DNA of 30,101 nucleotides from a virus (lineage: Duplodnaviria > Caudoviricetes), in the IMG/VR virus record IMGVR_UViG_3300038318_000222, positions 1 to 30,101 of that record, one strand, 5' to 3'. Of the stretch, positions 8,725 through 29,672 are shown one piece after another (positions within the stretch are counted from its first letter, which is position 1; each line of letters starts with the position of its first letter). Position numbers and translations under genes: made by a program. The notes beneath the pieces were generated by a model. That model searched no databases, had not been told where the DNA came from, and saw nothing but the letters and a program-made list of their open reading frames with translations.

Positions 8725-10283
8725 TGTATGTATCTCTTTTTGATATTGATTTAAACCACATAACAAACTTATCAAACATAACTGGTACTCTAATAACTAA
8801 AGTTTATGATTTTGATGAGATTAAATTAAGTGGTAACGATACTATGGGAGCAAATATTAATGAGCTCAACCAAGCGAAATGGTTTAGAATAAATGAAGAT
8901 GATGGAGCAGAAATATATAGCGGGTTAGTTTATAAGGTAAAAAAAATAGGGAACATCGTTGAGATAATCGGGGAAGATTTTCGGGAAATATTAAGTAATG
9001 AAATAGTGCTTGATTTTGTAGTAAGTACACCCCCAACATCTGTTTTTAAATTATTTGATCTCATATCAAATTATTTTATAAATACCGCTGATATTACACT
9101 AAATAAAATACCCCTTGAATTTATTAATTATGGTGACTCTGCAAATATAACAAATTTATTTGGCGACCCATCGGGGAACATTATTGCCACGAATGCCTAT
9201 ACGTACTTATTACCGTATATTAAATACTTTGAATATATGTTACACTCTCGTTTTGATTGGGGAGCAAAAAAAATTATATTTGGATTTACTAAAACTAGAA
9301 ATTATCACAGTATCAAATTAAGAGATTTTGAACATAAGTTATCTAGTAATGAACCAAATGTAAACAAGGCAATCGCAATTTTAAAATTTGCCGAATTCGG
9401 TTACGAGTGGGTAAAACAAGAATATGGTTATGCGTGGGAAGATGTTATGCCGTTAACCACACAATATTCTGCAATACTGCCAAGCGGCGACGACACAAAT
9501 AGGTGGGTAAAAACAGGAAATACTCAATACATTTATAAATGGGTGCTGCAAGAAATTTATTATGATACAATTCCGCCTATAAAAAACACTTGTCCTACTG
9601 GGTATGTTAAGGTTGCTAATCCAGATTTAACCTTTTCATGTGTTAGCACTACCGCCGAATGGCGTAATGTTACGCCGGAACAATATGTGTGGTCAGTAAC
9701 AAAACCAAATGCAGATGATGGGTATAGATGGGTACAGGAGGGCGACTCAAACATCATCTTCGAATGGAAACTTCAACAACTGGTCGATAAATGGGTAAAT
9801 GTCGAGCCGAAAGAAACGCAGTTGTCTCCAACACAACCCGAAGAAAGTGATCCGAATTTTCAATGGGTCATGACGGGTGAAACACAAGCTCCACTAGGGG
9901 CAACAAGATACTATTACCTTACTAATGACAATCAAATCGTAGAATCGGACCAATACGGCAATATCCCTAACCGTTATTACCCTGTAAAAACAAAAATATT
10001 TATTGAAGATTATTTAGCGCACGCCCAACAACAAGCAGTGTACGAACTAGCGAATAATAGATATGTTGACTCAATTATGATTGACGCAAATAGCCCTTTA
10101 AACCCGATCGATTTATCAAAAGTCGGGTTGTTTGATTTAATTGAGATTTACGATACAGATTATCAAAAAACATTACCTGTATCTGAAAAACATTTGAAAA
10201 TTAGCGAGAAAGGAATTGAATTTAAATTAAAGCTAGGATTTAAAAAAGAAAGGTTAACTGAAATAATAAGGTACACGACATGA
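8724..10283 (+). CDS. Baseplate hub/tail tip (Tal-like) protein with inserted Trp-rich repeats
   Basis: Follows Dit; C-terminal VGLFDLIEIYD...LKLGF hub motif; three internal W-rich repeats. Confidence 0.65.
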   Translation: MYVSLFDIDLNHITNLSNITGTLITKVYDFDEIKLSGNDTMGANINELNQAKWFRINEDDGAEIYSGLVYKVKKIGNIVEIIGEDFREILSNEIVLDFVVSTPPTSVFKLFDLISNYFINTADITLNKIPLEFINYGDSANITNLFGDPSGNIIATNAYTYLLPYIKYFEYMLHSRFDWGAKKIIFGFTKTRNYHSIKLRDFEHKLSSNEPNVNKAIAILKFAEFGYEWVKQEYGYAWEDVMPLTTQYSAILPSGDDTNRWVKTGNTQYIYKWVLQEIYYDTIPPIKNTCPTGYVKVANPDLTFSCVSTTAEWRNVTPEQYVWSVTKPNADDGYRWVQEGDSNIIFEWKLQQLVDKWVNVEPKETQLSPTQPEESDPNFQWVMTGETQAPLGATRYYYLTNDNQIVESDQYGNIPNRYYPVKTKIFIEDYLAHAQQQAVYELANNRYVDSIMIDANSPLNPIDLSKVGLFDLIEIYDTDYQKTLPVSEKHLKISEKGIEFKLKLGFKKERLTEIIRYTT

Positions 10284-11128
10284 GGAAAATAATAAGTTAT
10301 GTAAATGATATTTTAATAGCTGGAGTTGGAGCGTTTGCAACTTTACGGTATTTTTTATTCGAGCGTGGCACAATCGATATAATCACAAAGGTGTGTTTAG
10401 CATTAATCGCTATAGCTGGAGTCGGCAAGGTTTATCTAGGTTGGAAATTACCAATCATAGATAATTTTAAATTTATCCCTAAAACAAAACCTGAAAAATA
10501 TATGAATATCACGCTTGATGATGAGTTTAAGGATTTACAAATTTTAAAAGGAGGAAAAAACAAAATGAAAAATTTATGGAAAACTTTAATAGGAATGATT
10601 AGGGCGAATAAATTTACTTTAACAGGTAACTTTTCGATAATTGCTTTATATGCAATTTTACTTGATGAATTGTTTGTTAAATTTGGGTATACGTTTATAA
10701 ATCAACCTAACGAGTTCTATATTAGAGGAGGTGTTTATACTTTAGGTTTTATATTTGCATTAATTGCTACTAACGGTTTTGGATGGGAGCGTATCGAAAA
10801 ATGGATCGCTCGTGTTAACGAAAAGAAAATTAAGAAAGCGTTAGAGGTATTAGCTGAACTGTCTATTGAATATAAGCCCGATGTAGTCGGTGAAAAATTA
10901 ACTGAAGCTAATATTTTATTAGAGAAAATTCAACCGTTTATCCAAGAAAAATTATATCAAGAGATTAAAAATAAGCTTGATGAAATTAATACAAGACTAA
11001 AAAAATATAACGCTAATAAGTTATTGCAGCAAGAAAAAGAACGACAAGAATTGCTGAAACTAGCCCAACAAGAATTAAATCAGCACCACACACCAACGTC
11101 GCCTAGTAATCGAGGATTAATGCGATGA
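10280..11128 (+). CDS. Membrane protein at lysis locus (about 4 hydrophobic segments plus coiled-coil tail)
   Basis: Hydrophobic stretches ILIAGVGAFA, VCLALIAIAGVG, FSIIALYAILL, GVYTLGFIFALIA; strong internal RBS/ATG at 10565. Confidence 0.6.
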   Translation: MRKIISYVNDILIAGVGAFATLRYFLFERGTIDIITKVCLALIAIAGVGKVYLGWKLPIIDNFKFIPKTKPEKYMNITLDDEFKDLQILKGGKNKMKNLWKTLIGMIRANKFTLTGNFSIIALYAILLDELFVKFGYTFINQPNEFYIRGGVYTLGFIFALIATNGFGWERIEKWIARVNEKKIKKALEVLAELSIEYKPDVVGEKLTEANILLEKIQPFIQEKLYQEIKNKLDEINTRLKKYNANKLLQQEKERQELLKLAQQELNQHHTPTSPSNRGLMR

Positions 11129-11364
11129 TGGAATGGGTTAACGAAAATTGGCTATACGTTGTTATAGCGGGAGGGGCAATAGTCGGATTTGAAACGGTAC
11201 GATTGATATTTAAAAAAGTAATGAAAAAATTTAATAAACGGTATCTTGTGCCAGTGTGGCATAAGATGAAAAAATTAAAAAACATAAACACGTTAATAAT
11301 CCTAATGGTAATAATCATTTTAGGATTAATAACATGGAATATTTATTATATGTTTTTTAGATAA
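11125..11364 (+). CDS. Small two-TM membrane protein, holin-like
   Basis: 79 aa, WLYVVIAGGAIVGF and TLIILMVIIILGLITW separated by a basic loop; last gene of late operon. Confidence 0.55.
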   Translation: MMEWVNENWLYVVIAGGAIVGFETVRLIFKKVMKKFNKRYLVPVWHKMKKLKNINTLIILMVIIILGLITWNIYYMFFR

Positions 11365-11366
11365 TT

Positions 11367-11399
11367 AAAAGGGCTGATTAATTTCAGCCCTATTTTTTT
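11367..11399. terminator. Bidirectional intrinsic terminator between late operon and minus-strand operon
   Basis: AGGGCTGA-TTAATT-TCAGCCCT stem flanked by A-run and T-run. Confidence 0.8.
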
Positions 11400-11854
11400 A
11401 TTCCATATTTATTAAAGTAATCTTCGAAAGGTATTCCCAACCCATTAGCAATCGCTTTGTGGGTTGTAATTTGGACGTTATCAAATGCGCTATCCCGCTT
11501 GACTATCCTGTATAAAACAGTACGGTCAATTTTAGCATTTTTTGCTATTTGATACAATGTTATACTATTCTCATCAGCTATTTTTTCAAGCCAATGATAG
11601 TTTACATAATATTTATCATTTACTTTTTTTAGATTAACCCTAAATTGATTAGGGTTACCCGCAATATATATCTTAGCCCAATAACCTGTTGGTGTTTGGA
11701 CTATTTCATATGTAACTGTTGCTTGATAGTTATCTTTTTGTTTTTTTAACAATTTGGGCATATCAAACAAAACCGCATTAGCTAAATTATCACTTGTTAA
11801 TTCTTTACTGTTAAGGCTTAGGAGCCTTTTTTTTACTTCGTTATCTTTTACCAT
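11390..11854 (-). CDS. Protein with C-terminal XRE-type HTH (candidate Aca-like regulator)
   Basis: ITLYQIAKNAKIDRTVLYRI...KAIANGLGI; last gene of operon containing acrIII-1. Confidence 0.7.
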   Translation of the reverse strand: MVKDNEVKKRLLSLNSKELTSDNLANAVLFDMPKLLKKQKDNYQATVTYEIVQTPTGYWAKIYIAGNPNQFRVNLKKVNDKYYVNYHWLEKIADENSITLYQIAKNAKIDRTVLYRIVKRDSAFDNVQITTHKAIANGLGIPFEDYFNKYGIKK

Positions 11855-11857
11855 CTT

Positions 11858-12241
11858 TTACCACTCTTCCTCCTCTTCTCTTTTTTGGTTACAATCGTAA
11901 CATCTGATATCTGCTACATCATTTATTGCTCCGCAATAGGTGCATTGATATTCTGTGTCCTCATCAATTTCTACAACACAGATATCTTCTATTTTACAAA
12001 GTATGTCCATAGCAGTTGTCATGGGGTCTTCATCAAGGCTTACTTCTCCCCCGTATAATTTGATAATATCTTTGGCATAATCGACCATCGAAATATCATC
12101 GATGTCAAAAATATTCATGTTCCAATATTCTTCGTCTGTGAATTTGTAACATAGCCAATCGTATTCTTTGACCCAAGGTGCTATATAATAAAGCACCTCA
12201 AGTTCGTTCTTTTTTAGATATTGTGGGTTTAATTTGAACAT
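11858..12241 (-). CDS. Highly acidic hypothetical protein with C-terminal zinc ribbon
   Basis: D/E-rich; CTYC...CYDC; ends EEEEW. Confidence 0.7.
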   Translation of the reverse strand: MFKLNPQYLKKNELEVLYYIAPWVKEYDWLCYKFTDEEYWNMNIFDIDDISMVDYAKDIIKLYGGEVSLDEDPMTTAMDILCKIEDICVVEIDEDTEYQCTYCGAINDVADIRCYDCNQKREEEEEW

Positions 12242-12765
12242 TTTTTATTCCTCCCTTTATTTTTTTTATAAAATTTTGGGTAATCTCGACAAATATTATC
12301 GAACATTATCTTTCTTAGAAATTGATAAGACGTGTTGTCAACTTCTTCAGTTATTGCATAAATCTTTGCGCCTACAGGAAAGACAACATAATCAACGTGT
12401 CGAAAATCAATTATTTTATACGTCTTGAATACTTCTTCCCCTTTCATTTCTTTTTTTAGTACAGCGATTATATCGCCGATATGAGCAATATATGTTGCTT
12501 TTCTTGCCATATACCCTTGTTCAAGGGAATATTTTTTATTTCCGCTTGCTGTGACGATTAATTTTGCTTCGTATTCTGCTTCGTTTTCGTCCTTTGTACC
12601 ATCTAGATTTAAAGTATAAAATCCTCTATACCTAGAATATTTCTCTGTGAACGAAACGTGCATTCCGCCTTTGTAAAATTCGGCTCCACACTCAAATTTA
12701 GGAAAATCATTATTTTCCAATTCCTTAAATGTTTGCAGAACCCATTCATTTCTGTTCATATTCAT
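12229..12765 (-). CDS. Hypothetical protein (anti-defence candidate)
   Basis: 178 aa ORF with AAGGAGG RBS inside the operon. Confidence 0.7.
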   Translation of the reverse strand: MNMNRNEWVLQTFKELENNDFPKFECGAEFYKGGMHVSFTEKYSRYRGFYTLNLDGTKDENEAEYEAKLIVTASGNKKYSLEQGYMARKATYIAHIGDIIAVLKKEMKGEEVFKTYKIIDFRHVDYVVFPVGAKIYAITEEVDNTSYQFLRKIMFDNICRDYPKFYKKNKGRNKKCSN

Positions 12766-12781
12766 TCCTCCTTTTTATTTT

Positions 12782-12835
12782 GTTACAGACTAGCCAAAAG
12801 GCTAGTTTCGACCATCAAGGTCTCGTCACTGTAAC
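12782..12835 (-). ncRNA. Type I hammerhead ribozyme fold, variant core (G instead of C at position 3)
   Basis: Minus strand GUUACA-GUGACGA-GACC(UUGAU)GGUC-GAAA-CUAGCC(UUUU)GGCUAG-UC^UGUAAC; three perfect stems; predicted cut between 12788 and 12787. Confidence 0.75.
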
Positions 12836-13141
12836 TTTAGCGAATTTAAATTCAAACCCGTCTGGTAGAGTAGTGCTACCTTCTGGGAGTCTACCACCAG
12901 TTAATTGGGCGACTATTAATATATCGTTATTAGTTAATGATATATTAATACGATTTGAGTCAATGTAAAATCCTAGTTCATTACTTAATACATTAGCAGT
13001 ATCAGTATGTCCTATGGAATTTATAAAAGTCCCTGATAACATTTCTTTTACTTCTCCCACTTTAAGCGGGGTTATAGTCAAGTTATTTTCTTGACTTAAA
13101 TTTAACATTTGTAATGAAAATGCATTTGATAAATAAATCAT
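12815..13141 (-). CDS. acrIII-1: AcrIII-1 / DUF1874 (STIV B116/YddF-like) cA4 ring nuclease
   Basis: 108 aa; YLSNAFS, SIGH(45), NR(64), GGR(84)LPE(87)G match the family catalytic H/R/R/E pattern and spacing. Confidence 0.88.
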   Translation of the reverse strand: MIYLSNAFSLQMLNLSQENNLTITPLKVGEVKEMLSGTFINSIGHTDTANVLSNELGFYIDSNRINISLTNNDILIVAQLTGGRLPEGSTTLPDGFEFKFAKVTVTRP

Positions 13142-13151
13142 ATTATCCTCC

Positions 13152-13358
13152 TTAAATTTCGCAATTTAGTAAGTCAATGGGTGTTTTATGCCCGTATTTT
13201 CCTGTTGGTACAAGTTCCCCATCCTCGTTGAGGTCGAAATATTCAACCTCATACCATCCGTGAAAACTATCGTAATCACTTATTAACTCAATCACACCGT
13301 TAGGTGTAGTGATTACTGTACCTTTCTTTAAATCGTACATTTTCTTTTTAATTTCCAT
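13152..13358 (-). CDS. Small acidic hypothetical protein
   Basis: 68 aa, GGAGG RBS, inside operon. Confidence 0.7.
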   Translation of the reverse strand: MEIKKKMYDLKKGTVITTPNGVIELISDYDSFHGWYEVEYFDLNEDGELVPTGKYGHKTPIDLLNCEI

Positions 13359-13384
13359 TTTATATCCTCCATTTTTTTATTATT

Positions 13385-13405
13385 AGGCGGTTTAAGGCAC
13401 CGCCT
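13385..13405 (-). other. GC-rich intergenic hairpin within operon
   Basis: AGGCGGU-GCCUUAA-ACCGCCU; no U-tract in the operon direction. Confidence 0.6.
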
Positions 13406-13413
13406 GAAACCTA

Positions 13414-13662
13414 TTAGTAAATTTCTATGCTGTAATACCCATAGTCGCCAAAATCTACTGTGACATCATCATTAATTGTTGCTTTCACGCCATACCATCT
13501 TAAGACTGCAACTGGTTGTTCTAAATTGTTTGCTTCAAAAATTAAGATACTTTCTTGTGTATAACGCGCACCTTTTATAGCTCTTTCGATTGCTTCTTCT
13601 AGCGTTCCTTTAATTGATTGGTTTCCTGCTCCCGTTTGGTAATCAATGAAATATTTTTTCAT
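13414..13662 (-). CDS. Small hypothetical phage protein
   Basis: 82 aa, AAGGAGG RBS overlapping hammerhead pseudoknot strand. Confidence 0.75.
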   Translation of the reverse strand: MKKYFIDYQTGAGNQSIKGTLEEAIERAIKGARYTQESILIFEANNLEQPVAVLRWYGVKATINDDVTVDFGDYGYYSIEIY

Positions 13663-13674
13663 TATTTATCCTCC

Positions 13675-13737
13675 TTAGCCTATCATCGTCAGTAGTGGGC
13701 GGCTAACCCTCACTAGACCGCTTTAAGCGGTTTCGAT
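13675..13737 (-). ncRNA. Type II hammerhead ribozyme with pseudoknot
   Basis: Minus strand AUC-GAAA-CCGC(UUAAA)GCGG-UC^UAGUG(AGGGUUAGCCGCC)CACUA-CUGACGA-U-GAU-A-GGCUAA; canonical core; loop I UUAGCC pairs with 3' GGCUAA; predicted cut between 13716 and 13715. Confidence 0.9.
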
Positions 13738-14144
13738 TATAATTTAAAGCTTAAATTCTCGTCTTGTTGTTCTTTAGCAACTTGTAATAAGTCGTCAAAA
13801 GTATTTTCTTTTTCAAAGCTGTAATCGTCAAAGTTTGAGGTAAATGTATAAGTCTTAAAGTACTTGCGGTTTAACTTGACAAGATATGCGTCTATACTCT
13901 CGTTGTAGTTGTAACATCTTCTTACTTGCCAATCTTTTAAATAAACGGCTTTATTGTTGTCTACTAATAATACTAGGTTGTTCTTAATTGTTTTGATATT
14001 ATTAGTCACAATGATTATTTCATCGTCGTTTAACACTCTTTTAAATTCATAATACTTATTCGTAATTTTTTTCCAATTGTCTTTCCCAAAAAAGAAGTCT
14101 TTGTCTTTGTTGCTTTGATTTTTAATAAATTCTGAATAACTCAT
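13737..14144 (-). CDS. Hypothetical protein, first gene of minus-strand operon
   Basis: 135 aa, AAGGAG RBS, downstream of near-consensus promoter. Confidence 0.8.
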   Translation of the reverse strand: MSYSEFIKNQSNKDKDFFFGKDNWKKITNKYYEFKRVLNDDEIIIVTNNIKTIKNNLVLLVDNNKAVYLKDWQVRRCYNYNESIDAYLVKLNRKYFKTYTFTSNFDDYSFEKENTFDDLLQVAKEQQDENLSFKL

Positions 14145-14186
14145 TTTTTAATCTCCTTTATTTTTACTCTTTATCTCTCTACCTTT

Positions 14187-14215
14187 ATTATATAACAATA
14201 GTAACCTGATGTCAC
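14187..14215 (-). promoter_or_regulatory. Sigma70/SigA promoter of anti-defence operon with overlapping imperfect palindrome
   Basis: GTGACA-17 nt-TATAAT on minus strand; GTAAC-N5-GTCAC at 14201-14215. Confidence 0.75.
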
Positions 14216-14473
14216 CTAATAAATGCAATTATTTAACTTTTTTTTGATATTTATTTAAAACACTCAAAAAGTACATCAAAAGTATACTATAGTAGTTATA
14301 TTGTCGGTTAAATACATCAAAGGTCGAATAATCGACTCTATTTGTCGAAACTTGTCATAAGGCTATTTTTAGCTTGTTTAAGAAACTTTTATAAATTATG
14401 GTATAAATTATAAGACAAGCATTTAAAATCAAAAATCAAGCGGTTACATTGGGGTAATAATTGGCGTTAGAGT

Positions 14474-14502
14474 TTGACAAAATATGGAAATGAATATAAA
14501 AT
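14474..14502 (+). promoter_or_regulatory. Sigma70/SigA promoter of moron gene
   Basis: TTGACA-17 nt-TAAAAT followed by AGGAGGG RBS. Confidence 0.75.
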
Positions 14503-14522
14503 AAATAACAAGGAGGGATAAG

Positions 14523-14732
14523 GTGGAAAAAGAGGATATTAAAAAAAGTGAAGAGGAATTACAGAAAGAGCTAGAAGAAAATATTAAAAAATTTAGTGAT
14601 GCAATGGATAATGAGCAAGCGAGGTTAAGACAAAAAGCAAGTGATATTAACCAATTAGGTTGTGGGTGTGGCACCGTAATAATTAGAATTATTACGGTGA
14701 TAGCGATTCTTATTTTTGTTAGTTTATTTTAA
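14523..14732 (+). CDS. Small C-terminally anchored membrane protein (moron)
   Basis: Charged coiled coil, GCGCG, then hydrophobic tail; own promoter and terminator. Confidence 0.7.
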   Translation: MEKEDIKKSEEELQKELEENIKKFSDAMDNEQARLRQKASDINQLGCGCGTVIIRIITVIAILIFVSLF

Positions 14733-14762
14733 AAAACCGAGTTAATTCTCGGTCTTTTTTTT
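14731..14762. terminator. Intrinsic terminator (probably bidirectional)
   Basis: ACCGAG-TTAATT-CTCGGT flanked by A6 and T8. Confidence 0.85.
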
Positions 14763-14779
14763 GTATAGATAAAAATCAA

Positions 14780-14801
14780 TTTTGTATCAATTTTGTATCA
14801 A
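14780..14801 (+). repeat. Integrase arm-type sites, left pair
   Basis: TTTTGTATCAA twice in tandem. Confidence 0.75.
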
Positions 14802-14928
14802 AACTATTTAATTTTATGTTATACTGTTTAATATTAGATAATAACAGACAAAAGAAATAATAATTAAATTATCTAATTATATCTAATTAATTAATACCAT
14901 TTAATACTAAATAAGAAAGGATAATATT

Positions 14929-14994
14929 ATGAAAAAGATAGTAATTGCAGGAGGTTGTTTTTGGGGAGTTGAAACACATTTTATGAAATTATAG
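14929..14994 (+). pseudogene. msrA: 5' fragment (21 codons) of peptide methionine sulfoxide reductase in attP
   Basis: MKKIVIAGGCFWGVETHFMKL* contains the MsrA GCFWG active-site motif; GAAAGGA RBS upstream. Confidence 0.85.
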
Positions 14995-15040
14995 TGTAAT
15001 TATCTAATTATATATTAATAGTTGTTTTAGCGATTTTTTA

Positions 15041-15062
15041 TTTTGTATCATTTTGTATCAAA
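15041..15062 (+). repeat. Integrase arm-type sites, right pair
   Basis: TTTTGTATCA twice in tandem, abutting the integrase stop. Confidence 0.75.
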
Positions 15063-16196
15063 CTAAAATATTTTTGGTAAACGAGCATTAATCTCTTGTA
15101 CTGTCTCATCTTTGTATTTGTCATGATGTTGGTAAGTATTAACGGTCATTTCAACTTTTGAATGCCCGAGTAAAGCCTGAACATCTTTAACTTCCATTCC
15201 ACGCATTAATGTAGCGAATGTGTGACGTATCCTATGAGATGTTATTGGTTCTATGTTTAATATTCTGCTATGTCGATATAAGAAGTGGTCAACAGCATTA
15301 GCTTGCAGGTATTCTCCATTATCATGACAAATTACTAAATTATTGTTAATATACTTTTCTTTATGTTTTCTTTTCATATCGTCTTGATATGTTTTGATTT
15401 CATAAAGCAGCTCTAATAGCATGTTGTGTATTACAATATATCTTATTGATGATTTTGTTTTTGGTGTAGTAATCTCACCGTAGCGATTCAATGATTTATT
15501 CACATGTATCGAATAGTATTCAAAATCAATATCATCCCATGTTAGAGCTAAAATTTCACCTCTACGCATTCCAGTAAAAAACGCAAACAACAAATAAAAT
15601 TTATATTTTATCATGCCTGGTATAGTAGCGACATGGTAAATAAATTCCTTAAAGTCATCTAATTCGATGACCTTTTTTTCTTTTAATCTCCCTTTTTTAA
15701 ATTTAAAATCTAGTTTTAACATCGGGTTTACTACAATCAAATCTTTTTTAAATGCCGATTCTAAAACTGTATTAATAATCCCTCTATGCCGGTCTACCAC
15801 ATGGTGACTTTTCTTTTTGCTGAGGTTAAAAAAATACTTATCTAAAAAAAGCGGCGTAATATCTTTTAATTTTATATTCCCAATATTTTTGTTGACTACT
15901 TTCCGATAAACTTCTTTAGCCTTTTTAGTTGTTGTCTTTAGGTCGCTTTCTATGATTTCAAAAACGACATCTCCATACTCCTTAAACGTCATATTGCTTT
16001 CATCTTTAACGAGCCCCAGGATACTCTGGGACTCTATTTTTTTTAGAAACCTTTCAGCTTCTTTTTTAGCATTTCTTTGGCTTGTAGCAGTTTCATTTTT
16101 TGCTCTAAATGACTTTACTTTTACTTTACCATTAACGCGGTATCTCACTTGAAAAGATATCGTGTTTTTCCCTTCTCTTTTCGTTATAAACGCCAT
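15063..16196 (-). CDS. int: Tyrosine integrase
   Basis: TGMRRGE, PKTK, HRIRH, LLGH, TYQH catalytic motifs; N-terminal arm-binding region. Confidence 0.95.
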   Translation of the reverse strand: MAFITKREGKNTISFQVRYRVNGKVKVKSFRAKNETATSQRNAKKEAERFLKKIESQSILGLVKDESNMTFKEYGDVVFEIIESDLKTTTKKAKEVYRKVVNKNIGNIKLKDITPLFLDKYFFNLSKKKSHHVVDRHRGIINTVLESAFKKDLIVVNPMLKLDFKFKKGRLKEKKVIELDDFKEFIYHVATIPGMIKYKFYLLFAFFTGMRRGEILALTWDDIDFEYYSIHVNKSLNRYGEITTPKTKSSIRYIVIHNMLLELLYEIKTYQDDMKRKHKEKYINNNLVICHDNGEYLQANAVDHFLYRHSRILNIEPITSHRIRHTFATLMRGMEVKDVQALLGHSKVEMTVNTYQHHDKYKDETVQEINARLPKIF

Positions 16197-28846: not shown

Positions 28847-29047
28847 ATGATAGAACAAAAAGAAACGAACAACTTTGTCTTAATATGTGATAACTGTGGT
28901 AAAGAAATAGAAGGCTTCGATTGTATCGATTCCGCTTGTGATTACATGGAAAGTGAAAGTTGGGGTTGTGAAGAAGGAACAAAATTAGATTTGACAGAAG
29001 GATTAATGGATATTTGTCCTAAGTGTATGGAGGTAGGCGATGAGTGA
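28847..29047 (+). CDS. Acidic zinc-finger protein
   Basis: CDNC...CPKC. Confidence 0.7.
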
Positions 29048-29672
29048 GCTTATAAAAGTATATCCATTTAATGTAGCGTTTGACATATTTTGTGATGAAG
29101 AACAGGCGCTCAATATCAATCCAAAAAAACTAATTGAAACCTTTTTAACACTTACAGAACGTGAAGAAACAGTTTTAAGATGGAGATACAAAGAACGATT
29201 AACACTCGAAAAAACAGGAAAACAAGTAGGTGTAACGACAGAAAGAATAAGACAAATACAAGCGAAAGCACTGAGAAAGTTAAGACATCCGTCAAGAACA
29301 AAGAATTTTAGTATAGTGCCTTACGAAGAATATTACGAATTATTTAAAAAACACGAAACACTCATTAGAGAATATGCGTTACTCGAAAGAGCCTATGAAG
29401 AAATTGCGAACCACAAAAATATTAATTGTAGTGTTGAAGAAGTGGCAGAACAGGCGGCTAAAATGGTATTAACATTGGAAGATTTAGAACTAAGTGTAAG
29501 GTCTTATAATTGCTTAAAGCGTAAAGGCATAAACACATTGAGAGATTTAACAGAAATATCTGAAGCAGAATTGATGAAGATACGAAACTTAGGGCGAAAA
29601 TCATATTTAGAGATAAAAAACGCAATGGTAAGATGGGGAGTTAACCCTAAAGGTGGGTTTACCAATGACTGA
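29040..29672 (+). CDS. Sigma70 region 4 - RNA polymerase alpha C-terminal domain fusion
   Basis: LTEREETVL...[23 protein letters not shown] (SigA region 4) and [21 protein letters not shown]...IRNLGRKS (RpoA CTD). Confidence 0.9.

Follow-up and report, generated by a model that had tools for sequence, protein, structure and literature searches.

A type II hammerhead ribozyme between the stop codon and Shine-Dalgarno sequence of adjoining genes in a predicted phage accessory operon

Introduction

Hammerhead ribozymes clustered in prophages, where they flank genes that change from one cluster to another, were reported to cleave three polycistronic constructs of ~2 kb in vitro, and the cluster at ardA to be active in E. 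coli (PMC3088659). Three type II copies are likewise described as cleaving in Desulfovibrio vulgaris cells (PMC8782182). Processing into transcripts that differ in stability or translation is treated in a review as a suggested, undefined role (PMC6765202). The 5'-OH product of the glmS ribozyme is reported to be degraded by RNase J1 in B. subtilis (PMC11780869; PMC6765202), and hammerhead insulators placed before a ribosome-binding site (RBS) to support expression in the same species (PMC10805106). For the AcrIII-1 ring-nuclease family, a gene of the THSA-485A phage was reported to neutralise type III immunity based on cA4 when assayed heterologously (10.1101/778746); a preprint disputes that an archaeal member acts as an anti-CRISPR in its native setting (10.1101/2023.01.10.523387).

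Here, we describe a hammerhead locus in a stretch of phage DNA of 30,101 bases (hereafter, the window). The locus is a further member of the type II family described in 2011, and the alignments of Perreault et al. may already contain the form found here, which carries an extra U. A literature search on hammerhead and self-cleaving ribozymes in phages, with most subscription papers outside its scope, returned no paper on the layout in which a stop codon, the ribozyme and a Shine-Dalgarno (SD) sequence follow one another. The counts given below quantify this layout: the stop lies no more than 6 nt away in 151 of 224 copies, and the median distance to the SD is 9 nt.

Materials and methods

Core positions were numbered following the standard hammerhead scheme, as laid out in PMC11300833; the crystal structure described there was set aside as support, as its pseudoknot arrangement differs. 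Phage type II copies were collected from IMG/VR with a pattern containing the extra U, which occurs in about 370 stretches, and a U-less pattern, which occurs in about 1200 (both figures are estimates). The first 131 and the first 132 loci, respectively, were fetched. Among the fetched matches, 122 of 136 in the U form (window included) and 140 of 144 in the U-less form fold, and dereplication at 80% yielded 95 and 129 copies, i.e. 224 in all.

Results

Phage and operon setting

The phage record is about 60% complete and includes genes for the portal, the capsid and the tail, together with an integrase gene and one for a repressor-like helix-turn-helix (HTH) protein. Capsid matches reach only 22–28%, and gene relatives point loosely to Bacillota-type bacteria. 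Two membrane-like ORFs (10280-11364, plus strand) close the structural block; of the scanned ORFs in this incomplete record, none was assigned to an endolysin family. Seven small minus-strand ORFs (14144-11390) lie between the structural block and the integrase, with the type II ribozyme after the first of them (Table 1). Promoter-type matches in the window number 22, against 22.2 expected. The two ORFs flanking the ribozyme had no Pfam match, one marginal PHROG without assigned function, and Atlas matches that were under 0.9 or unusable; no relatives turned up when viral contigs were scanned with each of the two proteins singly.

Table 1. Positions of the ribozymes, their elements and neighbouring features in the window
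Feature	Position	Strand	Remark
Sigma-70-like promoter match, 11/12	14187..14215	-	consensus match only; likely operon start
Upstream ORF, 135 aa	13737..14144	-	widespread family; last stop base pairs in stem II
Type II hammerhead ribozyme with tail pseudoknot	13737-13675	-	predicted cut 13716/13715
Stem II of type II hammerhead, 3 bp	13737-13735/13684-13682	-	
G12-A14 of type II hammerhead	13734-13732	-	
Stem III hairpin, 6 bp	13731-13726/13722-13717 (span 13717..13731)	-	5' cleavage product would end here
C17 of type II hammerhead	13716	-	
Stem I and loop I	13693..13715	-	3' cleavage product would begin here
Catalytic core CUGACGA (C3-A9)	13692-13686	-	
Extra U after A9	13685	-	between core and stem II 3' strand
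Pseudoknot, 6 Watson-Crick pairs	loop I 13706-13701 / 3' strand 13680-13675	-	
Shine-Dalgarno core GGAGG	13674-13670	-	outside pseudoknot, 7 nt before AUG 13662
Downstream ORF, 82 aa	13414..13662	-	
7-bp GC-rich intergenic hairpin	13385..13405	-	kept exactly in L193 (910-928)
DUF1874 / STIV B116-like ORF, AcrIII-1 ring-nuclease family	12815..13141	-	fourth operon ORF
Type I hammerhead fold	12835-12782	-	overlaps end of DUF1874 ORF
Bidirectional terminator-like hairpin	11370..11391	both	consensus match; likely operon end

Several further elements were observed around the operon. Upstream of its promoter match, TCGA-centred palindromes cluster with a short hairpin (14320-14365) and are possible operator sites. 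By the 3' end of the integrase gene, a repeated 12-mer (14778-14815 and 15039-15075) flanks an AT-rich stretch, an arrangement resembling the arm sites of an integrase on either side of an attachment site that is not integrated. The last operon ORF (11390-11854, minus strand) weakly matches an HTH at its C-terminal end (E 0.0011, under the cut-off) and could be an operon regulator like anti-CRISPR-associated proteins. A 210-aa protein encoded on the plus strand (29040-29672) combines sigma-70 region 4 (residues 37-83) with an RNA polymerase alpha C-terminal domain (136-196) and is possibly a transcription regulator or decoy. The GC-rich intergenic hairpin of Table 1 had no meaningful Rfam match and was found in one of 505 fetched loci; in the window, a 68-aa ORF comes after this hairpin, and that ORF is missing from the sister allele L193, described below.

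A type II hammerhead with a tail pseudoknot

On the minus strand, the 5' strand of stem II, GAAA, stem III, GUC and stem I are followed by CUGACGA, the extra U, the 3' strand of stem II and, after a single A, a hexamer whose every base pairs with loop I, forming the pseudoknot. The core nucleotides C3-U4-G5-A6-N7-G8-A9, G12-A13-A14, A15.1-U16.1 and H17 are all present, and loops close stems I and III while stem II is open, which is the type II permutation. Stem I comprises the pairs 13715-13711/13697-13693 plus two further pairs, with an alternative register possible. Judged from its sequence, the element is a real hammerhead fold of type II whose core is intact, and Mg2+-dependent self-cleavage after H17 is likely by analogy with other copies.

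The strict-core scan of both strands over the 30,101 bases returned this copy as its sole match, and the same scanner gave 0.015 matches per window on 200 dinucleotide shuffles. The Rfam model RF02276 matched over its full length with 36.9 bits, at E-values of 1.6e-6 in a 131-nt search and 8.4e-8 genome-wide, and matched none of 14 control genomes. Rfam run at the gathering threshold over the whole window returned no match; the type II copy is absent from it because 36.9 bits falls under the cut-off of 37. An E-value scan of 4 kb (11200-15200) also missed the copy, which the 131-nt scan recovered. Folding of the region without the pseudoknot was no better than that of shuffles (z -1.19), with a competing helix, described below, being preferred.

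Across phage copies, loops paired with their own tails through 4.8 Watson-Crick pairs, compared with 3.21 +/- 0.10 when tails were swapped, and none of 1000 swaps exceeded 3.64. Double-sided changes were found at four of the six pseudoknot pairs among 17 sequences, 16 of them chosen for passing Rfam, in an imperfect alignment that left stems I and III uncounted. On these comparisons, the pseudoknot is a well-supported, family-wide feature. The type II identity, predicted cut site and pseudoknot put forward in the original prediction are supported; its coordinates all agree with the minus-strand sequence.

A sister allele and the extra U

The 143 loci examined that carry the upstream gene family have 99 distinct downstream regions, three of which have almost no downstream DNA. 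The ribozyme is found in one of the 99 (L193), and the view of it as a conserved trait of this gene family was rejected on that count. L193 keeps the gene order, with flanking proteins 88% and 57% identical to those of the window. It preserves the core, stems II and III, the pseudoknot and GGAGG without change; in stem I, one G-C pair has become C-G and the internal loop differs. Between SD and AUG it has 5 nt where the window has 7 nt, with the zero-gap junction between pseudoknot and SD kept. L193 lacks the extra U and passes the RF02276 cut-off with 39.8 bits. A DNA contig from run X3 has changes matching L193 and is also missing the extra U; since its study may be the one from which the window came, it is not independent of the window. 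Three of the four runs that share at least half of the sequence words belong to that study, and the runs listed included none of RNA, which carries no information on expression. The extra U was rejected as an unusual feature, being common among the IMG/VR matches and missing in L193; as these alleles compare, it is a common, dispensable variant. After the stop of other upstream-gene homologs, different conserved, structured-looking spacers replace the hammerhead (L132 group, L195, L273 and L182), with no Rfam match at the gathering threshold.

Layout across phage type II copies

The stop codon of an upstream ORF falls at positions -6 to +1 of the conserved UCGAAAC in 65 of 95 U-form and 86 of 129 U-less copies (151/224 of the fetched, dereplicated set); in 18 and 39 of them, respectively, its position is identical to that in the window. 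A conserved A before stem II, present in 80 of 95 copies, partly accounts for this placement. Stop triplets at those places close an ORF of at least 50 codons in 43/60 cases, versus 5/95 for the UGA of the core, which is an imperfect control. An SD and start codon follow in 79/95 and 98/129 copies, as called mechanically for ORFs and SDs alike and with many loci having 300-nt flanks only. In each of the two sets, the median distance from the pseudoknot end to the GG of the SD is 9 nt; the range is 0 to 57 nt, with gaps of 0-1 nt in 5/79 and 5/98 copies (10/177). The succession of stop, ribozyme and SD is a common layout in phages, and the window lies at the tight end (0 nt) of a continuous range of SD gaps.

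Within the window, the pseudoknot abuts GGAGG and takes only the AA on its 5' side; the AA of AAGGAGG is indeed part of the pseudoknot, as had been proposed, with the GGAGG core outside. It had also been claimed that the stop codon overlaps stem II, which is true of the last A of UAA (13737) only and not of the rest of the codon. Similarly, the ribozyme was said to fill the intergenic gap: it covers 62 of the 74 bases, the remaining 12 being GGAGG and the 7-nt spacer.

A predicted competing helix

In the window allele, the end of the upstream ORF (13749-13734) is predicted to pair with 13688-13673, and this competing helix is part of the minimum-energy fold. The precursor containing it is at -20.7 kcal/mol versus -14.0 kcal/mol for the active secondary structure, with the pseudoknot energy omitted; the pseudoknot favours the active fold and would narrow this gap by an amount that the model does not give. 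The helix would bury the core and the first two G of GGAGG, in the window allele only. L193 has no predicted counterpart, since the loss of the U and synonymous changes break the helix there. The predicted probability of GGAGG being unpaired rises upon cleavage from 0.51-0.59 to 0.77 in the window and from 0.63-0.71 to 0.76 in L193, a smaller gain. Over the 95 U-form copies, upstream-to-tail pairing was -5.14, compared with -4.78 +/- 0.20 in swaps, of which 4 of 200 were as low, and the window ranks 43 of 95. When considered as an SD-sequestering switch, the alternative fold and the SD spacing were not conserved in relatives, the helix being absent from L193 and the gap spanning 0-57 nt. According to the folding model, the window allele may be slow to cleave, as the competing helix is preferred when pseudoknot energies are left out, and the helix could couple translation to folding in this allele. 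A construct spanning 13660-13750 contains the competing helix.

A second hammerhead and an AcrIII-1-like gene

The original prediction had overlooked a second hammerhead fold of type I farther down the operon; the strict-core scan alone likewise reports only the type II copy. The fold has three stems in type I order, of 6, 4 and 7 bp, and a G in place of C at position 3 (12829), so that G3 stands opposite G8 where a C3-G8 pair, or a compensated one, is required. In the predicted fold, this G3 also lengthens stem I by pairing with C17. With position 3 left free, the scanner gave 0.16 matches per shuffled window, and because of this rate the fold taken by itself carries less weight. The DUF1874 ORF extends across the type I core and terminates in loop II. 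It ends in TVTRP, compared with TLMRV and TLRSC in homologs (93% and 69% identical, respectively), and a C3 core would encode the latter two endings. Past the TVTRP point, a contig from run X2 goes on with a different GAAA-hairpin-GUC. Among the type I patterns in IMG/VR, C3 occurs in about 2200 stretches, of which 131 of 144 examined fold, whereas G3 occurs in 18, none of which folds; G3 was rejected as a recurring natural variant. These comparisons suggest that the position of the type I ribozyme is conserved among relatives and that the copy in this phage is probably impaired.

The DUF1874 ORF lies two ORFs downstream of the type II copy. It matches PF08960 (E 2.9e-14), resembles the solved members 2j6b, 2x4i, 2j85 and 6scf, and is 53% identical to the THSA-485A protein. 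Its H45 is in a GH motif invariant in 52/52 aligned sequences, and we infer that it is equivalent to the catalytic His-47 reported for SIRV1 gp29 (10.1101/778746). The product is a putative AcrIII-1-like ring nuclease that may cleave cA4. Among 146 proteins flanking U-form copies (78 downstream plus 68 upstream, after 10 duplicates of the downstream list were dropped), 15 have a Pfam match and 5 of these 15 are anti-defence proteins (2 ArdC, 3 AcrIC5), as a raw count. Of 80 viral DUF1874 loci, three have same-strand hammerheads within 3 kb and none has any on the opposite strand; the three form one of 58 clusters. A general link between AcrIII-1 genes and hammerheads was judged weak on these counts (3/80 loci, 1/58 clusters), and that between anti-defence genes and hammerheads is suggestive only.

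The phage regions L283, L291 and L292 hold three to five type II hammerheads between small genes around a DUF1874 gene; stem III reaches 12 bp in some, and U and U-less forms occur in one array. Elsewhere (L001, L006, L042 and L066), a type II hammerhead directly precedes a gene for a Phi29-type single-stranded DNA-binding protein.

Discussion

By analogy with cleaving relatives, we consider that the type II hammerhead probably cuts its own transcript without regulation, splitting the first gene from the rest of the predicted seven-ORF accessory operon. Transcription would run from the promoter match to the terminator, cleavage is expected from the behaviour of type II copies that were tested, and owing to the type II permutation each new end would carry a hairpin. 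In stem III, 21 nt beyond its stop codon, the upstream message would terminate in a 2',3'-cyclic phosphate. Stem I, base-paired and bearing the 5'-OH, would open the downstream message together with the pseudoknot, followed directly by a free GGAGG. Both products would be held together by the 3-bp stem II and core contacts alone. Each piece might thereby gain its own stability and a context-free 5' leader, as with engineered ribozyme insulators, and processing would need no host or phage nuclease. The neighbouring genes vary and the ribozyme is present in 1/99 of the upstream-family regions; therefore, it appears to be a portable spacer, and its closeness to stop and SD would reflect compact packing rather than a switch.

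The original prediction had instead read this closeness as coupling of cleavage to upstream termination and downstream initiation. As a selected mechanism, this is not borne out: a stop beside stem II is usual in the copies surveyed, and on the SD side gaps of 0-1 nt are few, the pseudoknot does not include GGAGG and the predicted opening of the SD is modest. Incidental interference from a terminating ribosome is physically likely. A more elaborate form of the idea, which we regard as unlikely, is a translation-coupled switch in which the core and the SD's 5' half are buried in a ribosome-free precursor, a terminating ribosome melts the helix and allows downstream initiation, and cleavage then frees the SD permanently. 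The competing helix as minimum-energy fold, the predicted gain in GGAGG accessibility and an SD gap of 0 nt, which L193 keeps even though only 5 nt instead of 7 separate its SD from the AUG, are in line with such a switch, as is the slightly stronger upstream-to-tail pairing than in swaps over the 95 copies. However, L193 has no predicted helix, the middling rank of the window and a small family shift that may reflect shared base composition weaken the pairing argument, GGAGG is outside the pseudoknot, such short SD gaps are rare (10/177), and the pseudoknot, which would shift the balance towards the active fold, is missing from the energies. Very improbable, in our estimate, is the broader proposal that type II hammerheads punctuate phage anti-defence operons and that the window ribozyme doubles as a ribosome-operated gate. 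If true, the helix with the upstream ORF would lock the core and half of the SD until the ribosome terminates, and cleavage would then release an end-capped AcrIII-1 message.

Other readings concern what becomes of the products, or whether cleavage matters at all. Cleavage might trigger decay, with a host 5'-3' exonuclease attacking the 5'-OH end and lowering or time-limiting the expression of the downstream genes, as with glmS but with no ligand. RNase J1 acts in this way on the glmS product in B. subtilis (PMC11780869, PMC6765202), and RNase J is plausible here, since relatives of the phage genes are mainly in Bacillota-type hosts. The same degradation bears on the earlier suggestion that the 3' product resists exonucleases: the 5' hairpin stands, and a 5'-OH does not protect in itself. 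We nevertheless hold decay to be rather improbable, as the new 5' end would be paired from its first nucleotide, pseudoknotted and next to a strong SD, engineered hammerhead insulators ahead of an RBS are reported to support expression in B. subtilis (PMC10805106), and arrays in which several genes in a row are each preceded by a ribozyme (L061, L131 and L283) fit it poorly. It is quite improbable, too, that the element is a cassette junction or passenger, i.e. a short DNA repeat through which accessory genes recombine, with cleavage tolerated and not needed. Near-identical copies between different small genes (six pattern matches in L061, four in L131), the missing tie to the upstream gene family (1/99) and the core change in the second hammerhead of the operon speak for it. 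Against it, core and structure are kept with compensatory changes as stems diverge, where homologous recombination needs the opposite, and the window holds one type II copy. Moreover, type I patterns with C3 (~2200 stretches, 131/144 folding) stand against 18 with G3, none of which folds; therefore, catalysis appears to be under selection. Unregulated processing remains our preferred reading.

The locus provides a test case, with two natural alleles with and without the extra U and a strong SD at zero distance, as well as a second, probably impaired ribozyme and an assayable AcrIII-1-like ring nuclease gene downstream. The purpose that self-cleaving ribozymes serve in bacteria and phages is described as still unsettled (PMC6765202), and the locus leaves that question where it stands.

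With the RF02276 type II hammerheads of Perreault et al. 2011 (PMC3088659), as described there, the window ribozyme shares the open, short stem II, the canonical core and the pseudoknot between loop I and tail. The prophage setting near an integrase, with several hammerheads flanking single genes or short blocks, is also alike. It differs from the RF02276 consensus, which has a 2-bp stem II, in the extra U after A9 and the 3-bp stem II, and scores 0.1 bit under the cut-off. The triple hammerhead at ardA in Agrobacterium tumefaciens (PMC3088659) likewise punctuates a phage-like operon with an anti-defence gene; here, the candidate is DUF1874/AcrIII-1 and the second ribozyme is of type I with a core change. 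The D. vulgaris type II copies (PMC8782182) are reported near hypothetical and phage-like genes, with two of the three close together, and cleave in cells and in vitro, whereas cleavage of the window copy is a prediction. The glmS ribozyme is likewise found upstream of a start codon and leaves a 5'-OH on the downstream message, but its fold is different, and it is ligand-dependent, bound to one gene and decay-triggering, none of which is seen for the window ribozyme. Finally, the RiboJ and PlmJ insulators (PMC10805106), in which a hammerhead before the RBS gives a fixed 5' leader, resemble the role proposed here, although they are described as synthetic and promoter-proximal, while the window ribozyme is natural and intercistronic.
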